A stretch of DNA of 14,469 nucleotides. It comes from a virus. Taxonomy: Duplodnaviria > Heunggongvirae > Uroviricota > Caudoviricetes. The stretch lies in the IMG/VR virus record IMGVR_UViG_2740892028_000014, one strand, 5' to 3'. The notes beneath the pieces were generated by a model. It searched no databases, was not told the DNA's origin, and worked only from the letters and a program-made list of their open reading frames with translations. The position numbers and the translations under genes are program-made. This document shows, one piece after another, positions 3,990-14,469 of this stretch; position 1 is the stretch's first letter, and each line of letters starts with the position of its first letter.

Positions 3990-6341
3990 ATGCGAAACAT
4001 TGATCTTATCCGTCAGGTTATCAGTGCGTCTGAAAACAACTGGCCTCATGTGCTGGGCTGCCTGAACATAAATGTCCCTGACTCTCCGCGCCGTCATGCT
4101 CCCTGCCCTGCATGTGGGGGCAAAGATCGATTCCGGTTCGACGACAACGGGCGCGGTAGCTTCATCTGTAATCAGTGCGGCGCTGGTGATGGGCTGGATT
4201 TAATTAAACGCGTAAATAACTGCGACACAACAGAGGCGGCGCTGCTTGCCGCTGATGTTCTGGGTATTGATTACCGGACAACGGAAACACCAGAAGCCAC
4301 CAGCCAGAAACGGGAACAACTGGAAACCGAGCGCCAGCGACGCGAACAGGAGCGCCTGAAAAGGGCAGAGAAGGACGAACAACAAAGACGGGATACGTTT
4401 TCCCGTCAGTTTGATGACATGCGCAGAAAGGCTGTAAACGGCAAATCTGATTATCTGGTTGCGAAAGGGGTAGGTGATTTTACATTCCCCGTGTTGCCCG
4501 ATGGATCTCTGTTGCTGGCGCTGGTGGATAAATCCGGCGCAGTCACAGCAGCACAGACTATTACCTCACATGGTGAAAAAAGACTCCTGACAGGTTCGGC
4601 AAAGCAGGGGGCATATCACGCCATAAACGCACAGAAACGACCTCACAGCATCATAATTGCTGAGGGGGTGGCTACCGCCCTGTCGTGCCATTTAATTCGC
4701 CCTGACGCAATGACAGTGGCAGCAATCGACGCTGGCAACCTGTTGCCAGTAGCGGAAGTCATGTGCAGAACATATCCACAGGCACAAATCATCATTGCCG
4801 CAGATAACGATCACCAGCAAGGAAACTCCGAAAGTGGAGGGATCAACACGGGGAAAGATGCCGCAGAGAGGGCCGCTATTTCCGTAGCTGGCTGGGTGTC
4901 TCTGCCACCGACTGACTATAAAGCCGACTGGAACGACTATCACCAACAACACGGGCTGGCGGCAGCCACAGCAGCATTTAAAGATTCGATGTACCAGCCA
5001 CGGGGGAAAGGGGCGCAGGTGAAAAATCACAAACAGCCAGTCGGGGCGCTGAATGAGATCAGTTCTGGCGAGGTGTTAAGCGATGATGAAATTGCTGTCC
5101 TCGAAGAAATCAACCGGACGTTTACGCATGTCACCATTGGCGGGAAACACAAGGTGGTGTCGCTAAAGCCTTCTCAAACCGGCGGTGTATCGCACGTTTT
5201 CGAGGATTTATCACAATTTCAGCATTATTTTCATCATAAACCGAGAGTCGCCAGAAAGCTGGCGGGATCGGCGTGGCTGTCATGGAGTGGGAAGAACTAC
5301 AAGCCAGGAGGCGTAGGATTTTATCCAGTACCAGACAAATGCCCTGACGATGTTTTTAATCTGTATGAGGGGCTGGCACTGGAACCAATTGAAGGAGATT
5401 GCACGGTATACCTTAATCACCTGTTGCAGGTTGTCTGTGCCGGTAATGAAGAGGCATACCAATATCTTATCCAGTGGATGGCGCACATTATCCAAAAGCC
5501 TGATGAAAAACCGTCCGTGGCAATCGTGATGAAATCTGTCCCGGGCACAGGGAAAGGCACAACGGTTAAACCGCTGCTGCAAATACTGGGGCAGTACGCC
5601 GCCCACATTAACGGGGCGGGACATATTTCAGGGCGCTTCAATTCAATACTTGCTAACAAGCTACTGGTATTTGCTGACGAAGTGACGATCCACAAGCCGT
5701 CTGAAGCTGACAGACTTAAAGCGATTATTAGCGAACCGACGTTTAACCTTGAGCGCAAGGGAATTGATGCTGAACCAATGCCGAATTTTGCCCGGTTGAT
5801 ATTTGCCAGTAACAGCACACAGGTATTACAGGCAGGGATAAGAGAGCGCCGCTATCTCGTGCTTGAGCCATCTCCTGAAAAAGCACAGAGCCGGGAGTAT
5901 TTTGATCGGCTGTACAGTTGGCTTAATGATGGCGGTGCCGCAAAGTTGCTTTGGCATCTTAAAGGGGTGGATCTCTCAGGTTTTGACCCTCAACGAGCGC
6001 CACAGACCGATGCCTTACGTGAAGAAATCTTGCTGGGGCTGTCTGGCGTTGAATTGTTTCTTTATGGCGAGCTAATCAATGAACCTCCGTTTAATGGCGA
6101 AGTCCGTTTGTTTGCAAAGGATATGGTTAGTCGATTTGTAGCGTGGTCGCTTGAGCGTGGGGAAAAGCTTAAAGAGCCAGCAGCCAGATCACTACTGGGT
6201 AAATCACTTGCACAAATGGGGCTGGTGAAGCATGGAAGACCAGACCGAGGGAATGGCGTGTTCTACGAACTACCAGAGGTCGGAGTTCTACAGGCTGCGT
6301 TTGCCCGTCTGATCGGTATGGGGGGTTATGATGTTTTTTAA
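3990..6341 (+). CDS. DNA primase-helicase, P4 alpha / D5-like: zinc ribbon + Toprim primase + P-loop NTPase
   Basis: ORF track 3990..6341, 783 aa. Zinc-ribbon motif CPACGGKDRFRF...FICNQCG near the N-terminus. Toprim-like acidic motifs IIIAEGVATA and IIIAADNDHQQ. Walker A VMKSVPGTGKGT and Walker B LLVFADEV in the C-terminal half. ACGGGGG upstream of the ATG. Confidence 0.9.
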   Translation: MRNIDLIRQVISASENNWPHVLGCLNINVPDSPRRHAPCPACGGKDRFRFDDNGRGSFICNQCGAGDGLDLIKRVNNCDTTEAALLAADVLGIDYRTTETPEATSQKREQLETERQRREQERLKRAEKDEQQRRDTFSRQFDDMRRKAVNGKSDYLVAKGVGDFTFPVLPDGSLLLALVDKSGAVTAAQTITSHGEKRLLTGSAKQGAYHAINAQKRPHSIIIAEGVATALSCHLIRPDAMTVAAIDAGNLLPVAEVMCRTYPQAQIIIAADNDHQQGNSESGGINTGKDAAERAAISVAGWVSLPPTDYKADWNDYHQQHGLAAATAAFKDSMYQPRGKGAQVKNHKQPVGALNEISSGEVLSDDEIAVLEEINRTFTHVTIGGKHKVVSLKPSQTGGVSHVFEDLSQFQHYFHHKPRVARKLAGSAWLSWSGKNYKPGGVGFYPVPDKCPDDVFNLYEGLALEPIEGDCTVYLNHLLQVVCAGNEEAYQYLIQWMAHIIQKPDEKPSVAIVMKSVPGTGKGTTVKPLLQILGQYAAHINGAGHISGRFNSILANKLLVFADEVTIHKPSEADRLKAIISEPTFNLERKGIDAEPMPNFARLIFASNSTQVLQAGIRERRYLVLEPSPEKAQSREYFDRLYSWLNDGGAAKLLWHLKGVDLSGFDPQRAPQTDALREEILLGLSGVELFLYGELINEPPFNGEVRLFAKDMVSRFVAWSLERGEKLKEPAARSLLGKSLAQMGLVKHGRPDRGNGVFYELPEVGVLQAAFARLIGMGGYDVF

Positions 6342-8078: not shown

Positions 8079-8252
8079 ATGGCTATTTCAGTAAAGCCAG
8101 TATTGATAAGTGAGAAGCAAATGGAAGCGATAAAGAAAATTCAGGAGGAGCAGCGTAAAAAATCAGAGGTAGGAGTTGCGCCAACGATCCACGAAATTGC
8201 TCGGGGATTAATGGATAAGGCGCTGGCTTACACTTTAACTGGACGTGGGTAA
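8079..8252 (+). CDS. small protein, 57 aa, possible ribbon-helix-helix-like regulator
   Basis: Below the track length cut-off; read directly: ATG at 8079, AAGGGGG 5-11 nt upstream, stop TAA 8250-8252. Protein MAISVKPVLISEKQMEAIKKIQEEQRKKSEVGVAPTIHEIARGLMDKALAYTLTGRG has a strand-helix-helix layout. Fold call is inference. Confidence 0.5.
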   Translation: MAISVKPVLISEKQMEAIKKIQEEQRKKSEVGVAPTIHEIARGLMDKALAYTLTGRG

Positions 8253-8256
8253 ATCA

Positions 8257-9600
8257 ATGGCTACGTGGCAACAGGGTATTAATTCTGGTGGTTTTCTGGC
8301 TGGCATCGGTACGCAAAATGAGAATGCGCCAAAGGCAAGCGACATTAACGCAACGCTTGGTCTGATCCGCGAAAACAATGAACTGGCTCGATCAGGTGCA
8401 AATAACGTTGCTCTGACAGGTCTTCGAGGTCTGGCTGGAGTTGCTGATATTTATAAGCAGCAGCAACAGCAGGAGCGTAAAGCGGCATTCCAGAAAGGCT
8501 ATGCGGATGCTTATGCGTCCGGCGACAGAGAGAAGATGCGTAATCTGGTTACTGAATTTCCTGATGAGTTTGAGGAAGTCAGAAAGGGAATGGGGTATAT
8601 CGATGATGCCCAGAGGGATGATTTTGGCAATCTGGCGCTTAAAGCACAGGTGGCCTCATCGCTGGGCGCTGGCGCATTTGGTCGATTCATGATGGACAAT
8701 GAGAAGGAAATGCGCCGCCTTGGCGTTCCGCCAGAAGTCATCGCTGACATGCATTTTAACGACCCGCAGGGCTTCCAGCACTTTGCAGGTAATCTGGCAC
8801 TATTTTCTCTCGGTCATGAGAAGTACTTCGATATCAAAGATCGAATGGAAGGTCGTCGACTTGAGCAAGGGCGACTGGATGAAAGTATGCGTCAGGCTGA
8901 CATGGAGAACGCGAGAGGATGGGCAAATATCCAGAACGCTCAACTAGACAGGGCTCAGCGAGCACAAATTCACTCAGATGAGATGGGATTGAAGCTAATG
9001 GAGCTGGGGCAAAAAGGTAAGCCGTCAGCAGACTTAATTAAGGGATTAAATTCTGATATTACCAATTTTGGCAAAAATTATAACTCTGTCAGAGCGGCAG
9101 CAAACTCTCTGCAAGCCCTTAGCAAGGTAAATACTGGCGCTGCCCAACTTGGGATTATCTTCAACTACATGAAATCTCTTGACCCGCAGTCAGTCGTTCG
9201 TGAAGGCGAACAGGTTCAGGTAATGCGGTCTGATGGCATATGGGGACAAATCAAAGGATACATAGACCAGCTTAATGCTGGAAACGGCCTGTCGCAGGAG
9301 GCAAAGGATAACATTGTTAACGCCGCAAAAATCAACGCCAATGCTATGGGGCAGCAGTTTAACCAGCAGGTTGACGAATATCTCGATACATATGGAGAAA
9401 CCATTCCTCAGGGGCTAAGAAAAAGCCTTGAAAGAAGGAAAGCGAAGCTATTTGACGATGTTTCCGGGCAGCCTACATCACAGGCTGGCACTGGGCAGGC
9501 AAAAGCGGCAACCGGAGGAATATCAGAAGGCGCAACGGCAACCAACCCTAAAACTGGTCAGAAAATTATTTACAGGAACGGAAAATGGCAGCAAATGTAA
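8257..9600 (+). CDS. hypothetical Ala/Gln/Gly-rich protein, about 447 aa; no enzymatic motif seen
   Basis: ORF track 8245..9600 uses a GTG; the first ATG is at 8257 (MATWQQ...). The upstream small-gene stop overlaps this start region. Poly-Q run and predicted helical, low-complexity sequence. Last 16 nt overlap the next gene. Confidence 0.7.
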   Translation: MATWQQGINSGGFLAGIGTQNENAPKASDINATLGLIRENNELARSGANNVALTGLRGLAGVADIYKQQQQQERKAAFQKGYADAYASGDREKMRNLVTEFPDEFEEVRKGMGYIDDAQRDDFGNLALKAQVASSLGAGAFGRFMMDNEKEMRRLGVPPEVIADMHFNDPQGFQHFAGNLALFSLGHEKYFDIKDRMEGRRLEQGRLDESMRQADMENARGWANIQNAQLDRAQRAQIHSDEMGLKLMELGQKGKPSADLIKGLNSDITNFGKNYNSVRAAANSLQALSKVNTGAAQLGIIFNYMKSLDPQSVVREGEQVQVMRSDGIWGQIKGYIDQLNAGNGLSQEAKDNIVNAAKINANAMGQQFNQQVDEYLDTYGETIPQGLRKSLERRKAKLFDDVSGQPTSQAGTGQAKAATGGISEGATATNPKTGQKIIYRNGKWQQM

Positions 9601-11702
9601 TCTTACCGGAAGGTTTTGTGCTCGATGAACAACCTGATAACTCACAGTTTCCTGATAGTTCACAGCTTCCTGATGGTTTTGTGCTTGATGCCCAACCAGA
9701 ACAGCAGCAATCACCTTTGGTTTCACCATGGGAAAATTCCAGACAGGAAAATGTTGTTAATAATGCTAACGGTTTCGACCGTTTTATGTATGGCGTTCTC
9801 AGTGGATTGATGGATGTTGGTAAAGGTGTTGGCCTGTTTCAGGATATGACACCAGAAGAGCAAGCCGCAATTCAGTCTCTACAGCAGAAGTTAGCGGCAA
9901 AACCATCAACCGCACAAGATGTTGGTGAGTTTGTTGGACAAGCAGCGCCATTTGTTAGTGGTGGTGGGATTATTTCTCAGGTTCCGAAAGGTGCGGCAAG
10001 GCTGGCTGCCGCCGCAGGGCTTGGTGCTGGAGAAGGGGCTATTGTAGCCAATGGAACAAATAGCGATGTTGCTTCCGGCGCTGCTATTGGCGCTGTGGCT
10101 GGCCCTGTAGCCGAACTTGCTGGCCCTGCAATTAATAAAATAGCTGGGAAATTAACCAAGAAGAATGTTTCTTCGATTCCAGATATTGAGGGGATTACTC
10201 CTGCCGAAGAGAAAATTCGTAAGTTATCTGCACAAGGCAACCCAAATCTTGCCTCTTCGCTTGAAGGGCTAGATCTAAAACCTCAGAAAGAAATTGTTGA
10301 GGCTGCAAATAGGCTTCATGTTGATTCAGTTCTTCCTTCTCATTTTTCAGGAAATGAGCAATACCAAGCTGTAGAGCAAGCCCTAAAGTCACGGACAGGA
10401 TCAGCGTTAAAAGCTCAAGAAGATAAAGCAATAAGCGAATTAGCCTCTAGTGCTGGCAAGATAATCGATGATGTTGCTGGTGCGCCAGATGCGTTAGCTA
10501 TGAGCGAAAAATATATTTATCAGATAAATAGTAGAATGGAAGCACTAAAAAACCGTAGTGATCAGTTATATAAACGTGTTGATTCCGCTCTATCACCAAG
10601 AACAAAAGTCGAAGCAAATAACACAAGCACTATGCTGGAAAAAATCGCTGATGATTTAGGTGGGTGGGATAATCTTGACCCAATAGAAAAGCGAGTTTTT
10701 ACAGCAATAAACCCCGGCCCAGATAGCATCCTAACGTATGCAAATTTAAACAGGCAAAGGCGTTTAGTTGGTGATGCCCTAAATAAAAAGCAGGGGCCAT
10801 ACAAAGATGCTGATAAAGAAGCGCTATCAAGACTATATGGAGCTTTAGCTGAAGACCAAAAATCTGTCTTATCCAATACTGGATACTTGCGAGATTTCGA
10901 AGTCGCACAACGCCTTGTAGCTATGAGAAAAAACTTAGAAAGGCAAATGGTAAATCTTCGCGGGAAAACACTTAATGGGGATATAGCGTATAAAGTAACG
11001 AATTCTCTTCAATCTATGGCAAAAGGTGATGCGAGAGGGTTTCGTGAGATTATGCAAAATACTCCATCAAGAACATTGCGAAGGGAGCTAGTAGGAACAG
11101 CATTAAGAGATATGCTTTCCTCTGGGAAGCGCGGGGCCGACTTTAATCCATCTGGCTTTGCAGATTGGTGGCAAAACTTGCAACACAGTGGACAGCTAAA
11201 GACTTTGGCTGAACATTTGCCAAAAGAAACAATGAGCGGACTATATGATGTATACAAAGTTGCCAGAGCAATAAAAAATGCTAAAGCGCATGAAATATCT
11301 ACTGGTAAGCTGAATGAGTTTGTAAACAGATTTAATCGGGTAACAGCTCCATACGAACTAGCAGCAAAACACATTCAAAAAATAGGCACGATGATAGGCG
11401 CTCATTTTGGATCGCTTGGAGCCATTGCTGGGGCTGATATTGGAGCAAGATTGGCGAGTAAAGCTCGATTAGCTGGTGGAGCAGGGGCGGCTGATGCTGC
11501 GGATAAATTAATTGCCTCGCCAGCCTTCCAGAGCGCAGTAAAAAATCTACACGGAAAAGCGCCTGGGCACATTGTTGATTCACGTATCAGGCGCTCCCCT
11601 CAATGGAAGAGTTTTTTTAACTCTCTTCCTGAACAGGAAAAACGGACCATCGCCCGACTGGGCATCATTACTTGGCTATCTAATGATCCAGATAATGACT
11701 AG
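9585..11702 (+). CDS. hypothetical 705-aa protein with N-terminal tandem repeat and Gly/Ala-rich zipper-like segments
   Basis: ORF track 9585..11702. Tandem peptide repeat LPEGFVLDEQP / LPDGFVLDAQP, mirrored in the DNA at about 9600-9700. Gly/Ala stretches such as GAARLAAAAGLGAGEGAIV and GSLGAIAGADIGARLA. No Walker or nuclease motifs seen. Confidence 0.75.
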   Translation: MAANVILPEGFVLDEQPDNSQFPDSSQLPDGFVLDAQPEQQQSPLVSPWENSRQENVVNNANGFDRFMYGVLSGLMDVGKGVGLFQDMTPEEQAAIQSLQQKLAAKPSTAQDVGEFVGQAAPFVSGGGIISQVPKGAARLAAAAGLGAGEGAIVANGTNSDVASGAAIGAVAGPVAELAGPAINKIAGKLTKKNVSSIPDIEGITPAEEKIRKLSAQGNPNLASSLEGLDLKPQKEIVEAANRLHVDSVLPSHFSGNEQYQAVEQALKSRTGSALKAQEDKAISELASSAGKIIDDVAGAPDALAMSEKYIYQINSRMEALKNRSDQLYKRVDSALSPRTKVEANNTSTMLEKIADDLGGWDNLDPIEKRVFTAINPGPDSILTYANLNRQRRLVGDALNKKQGPYKDADKEALSRLYGALAEDQKSVLSNTGYLRDFEVAQRLVAMRKNLERQMVNLRGKTLNGDIAYKVTNSLQSMAKGDARGFREIMQNTPSRTLRRELVGTALRDMLSSGKRGADFNPSGFADWWQNLQHSGQLKTLAEHLPKETMSGLYDVYKVARAIKNAKAHEISTGKLNEFVNRFNRVTAPYELAAKHIQKIGTMIGAHFGSLGAIAGADIGARLASKARLAGGAGAADAADKLIASPAFQSAVKNLHGKAPGHIVDSRIRRSPQWKSFFNSLPEQEKRTIARLGIITWLSNDPDND

Positions 11703-12078: not shown

Positions 12079-12191
12079 ACCAACCCCCTTTAGCGTTGTT
12101 TAGAATGGCAATCATCATATATCCAAGACATGGCATTTGGTACATAGCTTGGGTCGGGATTTCAAATCCGATCCCCGTTGATGGGGCCGTT

Positions 12192-12573
12192 ACAGTACGC
12201 GCATATCCGCTTTATGTGAAACAGGAAGATTTTTCTGATATCACTGCCACAGCAAAACACCAATTTCGTGACCAGTACGCGCGCGAGGGGTATCAGTTGC
12301 AAAATTTTTTGCAACTGCGTCCGACCAGTACGCGCACGATGGAGGGGAGTGCCATAAAACTGTTCTCTACATAAGACAGAGTGGTGGTGATGTGTTGATT
12401 ATCGGCGTATATGCGCACAGGACGCGCTATGACGATGTTTTATGCGGGTACACCAATCACATGTATCTGATGTGATAAATCGTGTTACATGACATATCAT
12501 GTTGTGCTGGTGGTTATCACGACTTTCTGAATCTGGCCTTTGCCTGATATTTTGCGACAAGTACGCGCGCGTA
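12192..12573. repeat. family of short repeats with an alternating CG core (consensus roughly ACCAGTACGCGCGCG)
   Basis: Copies at 12192-12203, 12271-12287, 12324-12339 and 12557-12573, with a fifth at 14232-14247. Longer shared context CAATTTC..GA.CA.TACGCGCGCG at 12261-12287 and 14219-14246. Confidence 0.5.
12294..12317. promoter_or_regulatory. 24-bp palindrome CAGTTGCAAAA-TT-TTTTGCAACTG
   Basis: Perfect 11-bp inverted arms with a 2-bp spacer, between two copies of the CG-core repeat. Confidence 0.4.
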
Positions 12574-12599
12574 GCATCGACAGCATACACATTGGATAT

Positions 12600-12821
12600 T
12601 CATTTTGTGACCAATGCGATAAGTAGCGGGATAAGAATTGATAAAATCAACAGGCCGATGATCCACTTTTGATTTTCACTGGCCTTATCTCTATTTTCAT
12701 CAATCTTATCAATAATTCGACGCTCCAAGCCGTGCATATCACCGCGAATGGCAATCATCTCATTGCGAACATCCGAGAAGTGGTTGGCTTGATGTTCAAT
12801 GTGTGGCGTTCTGCCTTTCAT
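12600..12821 (-). CDS. small membrane protein, 73 aa: soluble N-terminal helix plus single C-terminal TM (XhlA/holin-like architecture)
   Basis: ORF track 12600..12821 (-). ATG start with GTGAGGA upstream on the minus strand. C-terminal WIIGLLILSILIPLLIALVTK is a clear TM segment. Family resemblance recalled, not searched. Confidence 0.55.
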   Translation of the reverse strand: MKGRTPHIEHQANHFSDVRNEMIAIRGDMHGLERRIIDKIDENRDKASENQKWIIGLLILSILIPLLIALVTK

Positions 12822-12900
12822 GCCTGATCCTCACCTATCGTCACCACCTGCTGGTGTATAAAGGTATTGGCCCAAGCAGCTTTCCAATGGGCACTCATGT

Positions 12901-13356
12901 TTATACGCTGACCTTACAATCAATCACCGCTTTTAACTTTTCAGCATTGCTTCCCTGGCGCTTCCACGCGCTGTAAATGTCTTTATCCCATGCTTTACCA
13001 GCTTTTGTTTGATAGCCTGCTTCATTGAGCCGTTCCGCTATCACACGCCCATTATCAAATCCCTGTCGGATGGTATCGGCAATGATCTTTATAACTGCCG
13101 TTTCGTTATATGGCTTTGGTGGGATGTTCGGCTTTCCGGCAATAAGCGACGCAGCGGCTTTTTCCATGCGCTCCACCAGCCCAAGCATTCGTGAATCAAT
13201 AGACTTTTCCGGCTGTCCCAGCTTCATGCGAATCGCATCAACAAGCCAGGAGGTTTTATCCCCTCCAGAAGCGAGAACAGACCGATTAAACTCATCCTGC
13301 AATTCAGATGGGATGCGGAACGCGACCAGATTAGATTTGCTCATTGCAAAGACCAT
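12901..13356 (-). CDS. DNA-binding protein, 151 aa: N-terminal ribbon-helix-helix-like segment plus C-terminal recombinase-type HTH-like segment
   Basis: ORF track 12901..13356 (-). N-terminus SKSNLVAFRIPSELQDEFNRSVLASGGDKTSWLVDAIRMKLG looks RHH-like. C-terminus IAERLNEAGYQTKAGKAWDKDIYSAWKRQ resembles the DNA-binding segment of serine-recombinase accessory domains. Both are motif-level calls. Confidence 0.55.
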   Translation of the reverse strand: MVFAMSKSNLVAFRIPSELQDEFNRSVLASGGDKTSWLVDAIRMKLGQPEKSIDSRMLGLVERMEKAAASLIAGKPNIPPKPYNETAVIKIIADTIRQGFDNGRVIAERLNEAGYQTKAGKAWDKDIYSAWKRQGSNAEKLKAVIDCKVSV

Positions 13357-13374
13357 ATCAGTGAGTAATATCCA

Positions 13375-13404
13375 TACAGTATACCACTGTATAACACTGT
13401 TATA
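13375..13404. promoter_or_regulatory. overlapping operator-like inverted repeats: TACAGT-N5-ACTGTA and TATAAC-N3-GTTATA
   Basis: Read directly at 13375-13391 and 13390-13404, about 20-50 bp upstream of the 12901..13356 start on the minus strand. Confidence 0.35.
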
Positions 13405-13458
13405 CGCTCAAATATCAGCCAGAAAATAACGGGCCAATCACAAAGCTATCGCTGTGTT

Positions 13459-13579
13459 GTTGGTTCAGAGCTGGGCTGTGTTGGTTCAAAATGAGTTGAT
13501 GTTGGTTCAATATTTCAGAAAAAACACAATAAAAACAACGATCTTTACAAATTGAACCAACTGAACCAACTGAACCAAC
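13459..13579. repeat. iteron array: three GTTGGTTCA copies phased 21 bp apart plus a perfect tandem triple of the inverse TGAACCAAC
   Basis: GTTGGTTCA at 13459-13467, 13480-13488, 13501-13509. TGAACCAAC x3 contiguous at 13553-13579. Lies in the divergent region between 12901..13356 (-) and 13616..13903 (+). Confidence 0.65.
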
Positions 13580-13615
13580 ACCTTTTTGCTTATCTATATA
13601 ATCTGAGAGGCAGAA

Positions 13616-13903
13616 ATGATAAGGGACAGGAAAGCTGAAGAGCTGGAGTCAAAAGGGCTATACCGGAGAGCTGCCGCACGATGGGCAGAAGTCATGATGC
13701 TGGCAGATGGCGATAAAGAACGTGAACATGCAGCAAACAGACGCTCTGAATGTATCCGTAAGGCGGCACGCCCACCAGCAACTACAGACAGATTCGGAGA
13801 TTTAAGACAGGCAGTTAAGCGGACTCATTCGGCTCTTGGTATGGATGAGGAAGCGAGAGGGTACTTCAGGCGTTATCGCGATAAAGATTGCCAGAGACAG
13901 TAA
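13616..13903 (+). CDS. PerC-family transcriptional regulator-like protein, 95 aa
   Basis: ORF track 13616..13903. N-terminus AEELESKGLYRRAAARWAEVM matches the PerC-type signature as I recall it. TATAAT at 13597-13602 just upstream; GAGAGG before the ATG. Confidence 0.65.
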   Translation: MIRDRKAEELESKGLYRRAAARWAEVMMLADGDKEREHAANRRSECIRKAARPPATTDRFGDLRQAVKRTHSALGMDEEARGYFRRYRDKDCQRQ

Positions 13904-14148: not shown

Positions 14149-14469
14149 TCAGTTACCAGTTGCATATGGCTGTTTCATGTGAGAACGGAGGTTTTTTCGG
14201 ACATCACTATTGGGTACAGCAATTTCACGAGCAATACGCGCGCGCAGGACAACAAGCCTGAACATGGTTACACACCTCGATCGTGAGGGATGTAGGCAAT
14301 GGCTTCTGACCAAAGCACCCGAAAAAACCGTGTACATAAGGGTGTACATAATCAAAAATCGCATTAGGAAGAAACCAGCTACAATGCGGCATTGAAGCCA
14401 ATACTCTACAAACAGATTCAAAGCGACATATCTCCGTAGGCCGTTGTTAATTACAGCGGCGCTACGCAT
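14149..14469 (-). CDS. hypothetical protein, 106 aa, hydrophobic core; gene status doubtful
   Basis: ORF track 14149..14469 (-). Its ATG is the last three bases of the window, just as the window begins on the alpA ATG, so it may be annotated in the source. Sequence is Arg/Cys-rich and looks atypical. Confidence 0.3.
   Translation of the reverse strand: MRSAAVINNGLRRYVALNLFVEYWLQCRIVAGFFLMRFLIMYTLMYTVFSGALVRSHCLHPSRSRCVTMFRLVVLRARIAREIAVPNSDVRKNLRSHMKQPYATGN

Follow-up and report, generated by a model that had tools for sequence, protein, structure and literature searches.

A hairpin-prone palindrome within a putative array of helper packaging-signal mimics in an EcCIMP1-like satellite of Escherichia coli

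The satellite and its conserved non-coding block

The window analyzed here (the whole stretch of 14,469 nucleotides) is an EcCIMP1-like phage-inducible chromosomal island (PICI) of E. coli, a satellite of P22-like podophages. We assign this identity because both the gene content of the window and the insertion of the same element in E. coli STEC383 share the EcCIMP1 architecture. The window carries genes for an AlpA/Vis-like HTH protein (1-204) and AntA, the isrK and C4 RNAs (2031-2258; isrK 2031-2108, C4 RNA 2171-2258), a Zn-ribbon/Toprim/DUF5906 primase (3990-6341) and two P22-type ejection proteins, one gp20-like (8245-9600) and one gp16-like (9585-11702). A small membrane protein gene is located after gene 16, at the place that sieA takes in P22. 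Then follow a conserved non-coding block of about 430 bp with fixed mosaic boundaries (12151-12582, plus strand), two small minus-strand ORFs of 73 and 151 aa (within 12581-13478), PerC (13616-13903) and the attR core GTGTACATAAGGGTGTACATAAT (14329-14353). In STEC383, yicC and dinD flank the element, and a tyrosine integrase is encoded at its opposite end. EcCIMP1 was previously found to excise, circularise and be transduced only when the P22-like phage Kapi1 is present, and the authors of its 2025 description state that the packaging mechanism could not be determined (PMC11773190). The small terminase (TerS) of Kapi1 is 100% identical to that of Sf6 (gp1), HK620 and Sf101.

The att core consists of a direct pair, GTGTACATAA-GG-GTGTACATAAT (window 14329-14353; 787-830 and 17590-17613 in the close relative L001), and further TGTACA motifs were found on the integrase side of att. 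Insertion between yicC and dinD takes place without a tRNA, while EcCIMP1 instead uses tRNA-Thr. The isrK and C4 antisense RNAs are encoded inside a 355-aa 'Ash' ORF (1650-2717). Residues 124-232 of this ORF, which match Pfam Phage_ASH, span these RNA genes, and the Ash protein family may therefore largely represent the translation of conserved RNA genes. Relative to close relatives (L001 15380-15418) the window has a 2-bp deletion at approximately 12079-12090, which frameshifts the N-terminus of the small membrane protein at the sieA position; the protein is 131 aa in L001, and the corresponding ORF here is 118 aa.

Just upstream of PerC, an AT-rich spacer is flanked by iterons, TGTTGGTTCA, in three direct (13458, 13479, and 13500) and three inverted copies (13553-13580), with eight matches found vs. 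1.2 expected. Judged from the repeats, the region 13458-13580 looks like an origin of the P4 ori/crr type. EcCIMP1 and three other relatives (L004, L008, and L015) have a second, inverted iteron copy downstream of the primase gene, which is absent from this window. The non-coding block was also considered as a replication origin of the P4 ori/crr iteron type. Iterons of such an origin would be expected to co-vary with the replicase. The same block was found with DUF5906 and with DUF927 primases, and we rejected an origin role for it because the iterons at 13458-13580 are the better candidate.

The block was present in 545 of 5426 complete E. coli genomes (approximately 10%), 91-98% identical and with differing flanks; EcCIMP1 (L284) carries it at 94.7% identity. 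The first-pass annotation had described the surroundings as ORF-poor, and this 521-bp stretch (12079-12599) is indeed non-coding. It contains mechanical ORFs only (92, 50, and 63 aa), neither the lengths nor the frames of these are kept among relatives, and no conserved ORF was found within the block. To the left, the neighbouring ejection-gene modules are at most about 74% identical or not alignable, while the block itself stays at 91-98%. To the right, homology between elements always stops at 12580-12582, variable cargo begins at 12581, and homology resumes at 13479. The cargo slot (12581-13478) holds an Abi-family gene, a 52-aa AlpA-like HTH gene (alpA_1 of EcCIMP1) or other genes in relatives.

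Two further symmetric sequences were observed in the block. An invariant hairpin, GGGTCGGG-ATTTCAAA-TCCGATCCC (12151-12176), is located at its exact left boundary. A tRNA fragment or att remnant at this edge was considered and rejected, as ARAGORN found no tRNA and the att core lies elsewhere. A second inverted repeat, ATCACAT-N7-ATGTGAT (12456-12476), overlaps the -35 hexamer of a rightward promoter-like site, GTGATA-17-TATCAT (12472-12500), and the two could by their sequence be an operator-promoter pair.

DNA searches with the block gave no match among phages, near or distant, and the sole match among plasmids was a mislabelled chromosome. The block was absent from P22-like prophages having gp16 relatives at 41-62% identity, and a gp16-like protein scan of the genome contigs revealed no relatives. 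Approximately 55 block-bearing loci were examined, and satellite genes were found nearby in all except one. The exception is a metagenome contig, L013 (IMGVR_UViG_3300045988_004969), in which Kapi1-like head genes are joined to the block. Its TerL, portal, coat, and needle proteins are Kapi1-like at 92-100% amino acid identity (coat 67%), and its right end is EcCIMP1-like. This contig may be an assembly chimera, or a phage-satellite recombinant formed through an approximately 280-bp near-identical DUF2824 segment.

Repeat units resembling known and candidate helper packaging sequences

The block contains repeats of a CG-rich motif. The AGTACGCGC family has five plus-strand members within 12194-12568, of which four are exact and one is a near match. 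The extended motif, here termed the A unit, is TTTYGNGAC-MAG-TACGCG(CGCG). Copy 1 is represented by its 3' half, GTTACAGTACGCGCA (12189-12203), copy 2 by TTTCGTGACCAGTACGCGCGCGAGG (12264-12288), and copy 3 by a 3' half only, GCGTCCGACCAGTACGCGCACG (12318-12339). The latter is the most variable copy, with 7 of 22 columns varying, and copies 2 and 3 are the left and right CG motifs on either side of the palindrome described below. A fifth copy, AGGACGCGC (12419-12427), is doubtful, and its upstream part does not fit the motif. Copy 5, TGATATTTTGCGACAAGTACGCGCGCGTAG (12545-12574), is located at the right edge of the block. A second repeat type occurs in the same arrays. This B unit has the form GAAGATTTTTCNGAC-ATCAC-TACGCGAG and is found at 12224-12256 as a sequence resembling the P22 pac site and beginning with GGAAGATTTTTCTGATATCACTGCC. 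Outside the block, a second composite B-A unit, GAGGTTTTTTCGGACATCACTA...ATTTCACGAGCAATACGCGCGCGCAGG (14186-14248), lies about 80 bp left of the attR core. Both are on the plus strand.

The A units resemble a segment of the helper small-terminase gene. A position weight matrix (PWM) built from the satellite copies alone ranked a coding-strand site within terS first in the 39-kb Kapi1 genome, with a score of 23.0 bits vs. 13.7 for the next match and a null maximum of 17.9 (the best of 100 simulated genomes). The matching site is GGATTTTCGCGACAAGTACGCGAAGG, the segment considered as a candidate pac is GAGGATTTTCGCGACAAGTACGCG, and the 14-mer GCGACAAGTACGCG is common to A unit copy 5 and Kapi1 terS. 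A reciprocal matrix made only from phage terS genes had its top matches in the window at 12259, 12545, and 14218, and motif copies were top in EcCIMP1 too. When viral contigs were scanned without bias, 158 exact matches to the motif were obtained. Of these, 86 were located in TerS-homologous ORFs, where they encode a conserved FRD(K/Q)YA(R/K)A segment. Most of the other 72 fell within the block or within non-coding arrays carried by satellites that share the int/AntA/primase/PerC backbone. The 18-mer TTTCGTGACCAGTACGCG of copy 2 recurs in one identical 40-nt context at 21 viral-contig loci, and this context reads as a terS-like coding segment. The motif was absent from P4 itself. Comparing all 13-mers of the satellite with those of the helper added no information; about 23 matches would be expected by chance alone.

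In terS the motif occupies codons 55-64, at the edge of the DNA-binding domain, and in 2013 Leavitt reportedly placed the Sf6 pac in the part of gene 1 encoding that domain. Among Sf6-type terS alleles (L285-L364) nucleotide diversity falls approximately threefold from codon 60 or thereabouts onward, and a mosaic (recombination) boundary therefore coincides with the motif. No extra synonymous constraint was found at the motif within these alleles, which weakens the case for a packaging signal; the profile shows the mosaic boundary only.

The B units resemble the pac site of P22. A PWM made from 12 B units of five satellites had its top match in the whole P22 genome at nt 4, which is the pac site by the annotation of the record. 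The score was 33.3 bits vs. 10.9 for the next match, and the null maximum was 22.4. A regular expression for P22 pseudo-pac sites has been derived from transduction data (PMC11226127). It was found exactly in array units of two other satellites (L255 and L251) and with one mismatch (16/17) at 12226-12242 of the window, where 11 of 12 positions of the functional 12-bp P22 pac core, AAGATTTATCTG, are present. The two unit types differ mainly in the length of the spacer ahead of TACGCG (3 nt in A units, 5 nt in B units). This parallels the difference between the Sf6-type terS site (A) and the P22 pac site (B). The P22 pac region, GAAGATTTATCTGAAGTCGTTACGCGAGCAG (L433 4-35), and the Kapi1 terS segment, GAGGATTTTCGCGACAAGTACGCGAAGGCA (L176 18866-18898), have a bipartite pattern in common, GARGATTT...TACGCGA. 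They share it in different reading frames, which argues for a signal at the DNA level, and the pattern would predict where the Sf6-type pac lies. The B units of the arrays are near-copies of the P22 pac and, like it, have a single, asymmetric orientation. The P22 pac is one 22-bp site inside the coding gene 3, whereas the units here are non-coding, repeated and mixed with A units, and their function is putative.

Many satellites carry arrays of A and B units, and two locations were seen for them. Where the backbone is the same but the ejection-linked block is missing, the arrays were observed immediately upstream of the isrK/C4 immunity RNAs (L251 5560-5840, L198 1880-2100, L262, L101, L183, L202, and others). 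The array is thus a movable module, and its site upstream of isrK also fits a regulatory role, which weakens the packaging reading.

The terS-like repeats could instead be relics without function, left from a terminase gene of an ancestral satellite or phage, with the palindrome a product of chance or of neutral replication slippage. The motif does correspond to a conserved coding segment of TerS. Furthermore, the motif copies were no more conserved than the rest of the block in a shallow within-family alignment, which is as expected for debris and weakens the case for a packaging array. Repeats as good as the palindrome are also seen in 3% of random windows, and the palindrome core is found in unrelated genomes. 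However, only a segment of about 20-30 nt is kept, and it is repeated five to six times in three reading frames. When a hidden TerS-like ORF was sought in the block, only a 12-aa match was found. With three frames in use and nothing else TerS-like in the block, we therefore regard the motifs as copies made at the DNA level and not as a decayed gene. The presence of both unit types in arrays of many satellites, at either of two positions, the match of the B units to the functional pac site of P22 rather than to a random part of gene 3, and the high identity of the block next to divergent ejection genes all speak against debris as well, and we consider that explanation quite improbable.

The palindrome and its natural variants

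Between A unit copies 2 and 3 the window contains a 24-bp palindrome, CAGTTGCAAAA-TT-TTTTGCAACTG (12294-12317, no strand assigned). The first-pass annotation had pointed to this sequence and to its location between two CG motifs, and both were borne out: the arms are perfect over 11 nt around a 2-nt centre, and AGTACGCGC is found at 12274 and at 12327, 53 bp apart. An inverted repeat of comparable quality (arms ≥ 11, spacer ≤ 4) was found in 10 of 300 first-order Markov simulations of the window (3%). By itself the palindrome is mildly improbable, and thus unusual, not compelling. As single-stranded DNA it has a folding energy of -9.7 kcal/mol (z = -3.7), and a 10-bp stem is predicted on either strand. 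The 22-nt core was also found in 30 unrelated contigs, comprising 15 of 15 matches in the genome collection and 15 of 51 metagenome matches. The palindrome sequence is therefore not unique to the EcCIMP1-like element; the genome-collection scan returned unrelated taxa only and is uninformative on the distribution beyond E. coli.

The palindrome is best described as a hairpin-prone inverted duplication that forms the spacer of A unit copies 2 and 3. The right arm of the palindrome, TTTTGCAAC, looks like the 5' half of an A unit cut short, and the left arm is the inverted copy. Together with the T-run, the right arm reads TTTTTTGCAAC, close to the 5' half of the A unit in copy 5 (TTTTGCGAC) and in L251 (TTTTTGCAC). 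An A4T6 (or A6T4) tract is located between two putative terminase-binding repeats 53 bp apart.

The centre of the palindrome varies in nature. Named by the two central bases and the outermost base, the forms found were AA-A, AA-G, TT-G, AG-G, AG-A, and CT-G. The majority form, which includes EcCIMP1, is CAGTTGCAAAA-AA-TTTTGCAACTA. Among complete E. coli genomes 75 records have exactly the form of the window, 79 differ from it at one or two positions and 301 at three. In 36 metagenome copies we found AA-A (20), TT-G (9), AG-G (3), AA-G (2), AG-A (1), and CT-G (1), and flipped centres occurred only alongside perfect 11-bp arms (Fisher p = 1e-5). Two genomes whose flanks agree have CT and AG centres, respectively, and are exact reverse complements of each other in the palindrome. 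The centre thus exists as two inversion pairs, AA/TT and AG/CT, in otherwise matching haplotypes, and TT-G and AA-A were each found on both left-flank haplotypes.

The sequence of the window is obtained by joining positions 1-11 of the AA-A form to the reverse complement of its positions 1-13; likewise, the reverse complement of the CT form is the AG form. One intrastrand template switch, in which positions 12-24 are copied from the complement of positions 1-13, converts the majority form to that of the window, so that a single event accounts for all three differences between them. The inversion pairs and the template-switch pattern indicate that the hairpin forms in vivo and that its loop flips recurrently. 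Quasipalindrome template-switch hotspots are known in E. coli, and small hairpin-loop inversions are known in plastid DNA. The palindrome resembles these in its templated changes, its loop inversion pairs and the perfection of its outer base pair in one event, and both arm-from-arm copying and loop inversions on different backgrounds were found here. The known cases are mutational phenomena in genes or spacers, whereas this one lies inside a putative packaging signal. The flipping of the loop is a mutational signature, not evidence of function.

In 12 of 533 E. coli records, whose hosts vary, a 53-bp deletion has removed the palindrome and one motif copy; recombination between the direct motif repeats on either side explains this deletion. 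No AT-rich palindrome was found in distant arrays. These absences argue against an essential role, and a function specific to the palindrome is unsupported because it is missing from these 12 records and because distant arrays have no such palindrome.

Earlier, the palindrome had been put forward as an operator, an RNA hairpin or a recombination core, and none of the three proposals is supported. A dimeric protein, be it a regulator from satellite or helper or an architectural protein of the host, could use the 11-bp arms as half-sites. The symmetry is perfect, the arms were near-invariant across 30 distinct block sequences, and common variation is confined to the centre and the outermost base, which would agree with a centre that is not contacted. 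The palindrome is also placed between two putative terminase-binding repeats, and lambda cosB has an IHF site between such repeats. However, an operator for a dimeric repressor would be accompanied by a promoter and usually by extra half-sites and a linked regulator gene; no promoter-like site overlaps or adjoins the palindrome, and half-sites in the window did not exceed chance (7 vs. 6.9 expected), with none in Kapi1. The neighbouring cargo genes vary between elements while the palindrome is constant. The arms are no more conserved than the surrounding block, and the palindrome is dispensed with in the deletion records and in distant arrays. We find binding by a dimeric protein unlikely.

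Of the proposed hairpin, the part that stands is its formation in DNA, which the AA/TT and AG/CT inversion pairs support; a role in RNA is unsupported. A transcript crossing the block could in principle fold into the 10-bp stem on either strand and be stabilized, processed or terminated there, and the cargo genes to the right read toward the block on the minus strand. An intrinsic terminator has a G+C-rich stem followed by a T/U run. The stem here is A/T-rich and the bases after it are CGTCCGACC (plus strand) and ATACCCCTC (minus strand), so that neither strand has a U-run, and a terminator scan found nothing at this site. No Rfam family matched. The fold of the whole block has a z of about -2.5 on both strands, as expected of symmetry at the DNA level, and the orientation of the array relative to transcription differs between satellite types. 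The arms barely vary, and comparison of relatives, suggested in the first-pass annotation as a check for covariation, gave no covariation and no compensatory changes that could be scored, only loops that flip. An RNA hairpin is very unlikely.

A recombination core, where a site-specific recombinase crosses over or where the adjacent cargo is exchanged, would agree with a centre that occurs in inverted states, with a block that borders the variable cargo slot, and with a pair of deletion endpoints that flanks the palindrome. Against this, the inverted segment is the 2-nt loop only, unlike an invertible switch, and recombinase-type flanking sites were not found. The att core at 14329-14353 is a different sequence, the cargo breakpoint at 12580-12582 is about 265 bp away, and the deletion has the explanation given above. 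No invertase gene was present among the ORFs searched. A recombination core is the proposal to which we give hardly any weight.

The array as a candidate packaging signal

Satellites are known to copy helper packaging signals, and because of this we read the block and the attR-proximal unit as an array of helper pac mimics. Both unit types resemble known or candidate helper packaging sequences, as seen from the A-unit PWM in Kapi1 terS, the B-unit PWM at the P22 pac and the pseudo-pac expression, and the block is present in EcCIMP1, which is mobilised by a phage with the matching terminase (Kapi1). Packaging-signal mimicry by the array probably explains how the satellite is packaged. On balance, we slightly favour reading the palindrome as a hairpin-prone spacer inside this putative array and not as a separate device.

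Under the mimic reading, the small terminase of the helper would bind the A/B array on satellite concatemers during helper growth. The bound protein would then recruit the large terminase, and headful packaging of satellite DNA would begin near the array. The palindrome would extrude as a hairpin during replication, which would flip the loop and, in the lineage of the window, would have perfected the arms. Its contribution would at most be that of an A4T6 tract or a spacer separating two terminase-binding repeats; equally, it may be a by-product of mutation that is tolerated. A role for the palindrome itself, as an A-tract bend, in spacing or as a zone for the initiation cut, is speculative.

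A broader version of this reading is that the block is a multi-specificity 'super-pac' in which mimics of the P22 type are combined with mimics of the Sf6/HK620/Kapi1 type. The Sf6-type pac would then be GAGGATTTTCGCGACAAGTACGCGAAGG in terS, and the palindrome would mark the bend or initiation-cut zone. We offer this tentatively, at somewhat less than even chances. If true, various P22-like helpers would be able to package the EcCIMP1-like satellites, which have no terminase, and the satellites would compete with these helpers.

Terminase-binding repeats separated by bent or IHF-bound DNA are found in lambda cosB (R3-I1-R2-R1) and in pacL of SPP1. The array here likewise has an A/T tract between two putative terminase-binding repeats. 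It differs from cosB and pacL in that no IHF consensus was recognised by eye at the palindrome and in that distant arrays are without such an element. The cos-carrying PICIs EcCICFT073 and SaPIbov5 copy the cos site of their helper. As is proposed for the satellite described here, they are packaged through a copy of the recognition sequence of the helper. They use the cos of lambda-like or phi12-like helpers, often with the redirecting protein Rpp, whereas the system here would be a headful (pac) system with P22-like helpers.

The PLE satellites of Vibrio mimic the pac of ICP1: the two have an identical 14-bp core in common, and transduction requires it (bioRxiv 10.1101/2024.04.22.590561). As in the PLE/ICP1 pair, the satellite described here has no large terminase of its own and shares a short identical stretch with part of what would be the helper's packaging signal; the core is 14 bp in both cases. 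PLE uses a single 89-bp region and the dedicated packaging proteins Gpi, GpsA, and GpsB, whereas five to six repeats and no recognisable packaging protein were found here. The match on the helper side is inside terS in the present case and in an intergenic pac in the case of ICP1. According to a review, recognition by some small terminases depends on DNA shape. Mimicry of packaging signals is a known strategy of satellites; what would be unusual here is the multi-copy arrangement and the combination of two terminase specificities.

The palindrome alone matters less. It represents a clean natural case of hairpin-driven loop flipping and of a single template-switch mutation that changes several bases. 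Islands of the EcCIMP1 type are found in about 1 in 10 complete E. coli genomes. They encode PerC-type virulence regulators and have a variable cargo slot, occupied in one relative by an Abi-family gene. For these islands the array represents a concrete cis-acting packaging candidate with coordinates, and reading it as an array of pac mimics would also predict the pac sequence of the Sf6/HK620 terminase family.
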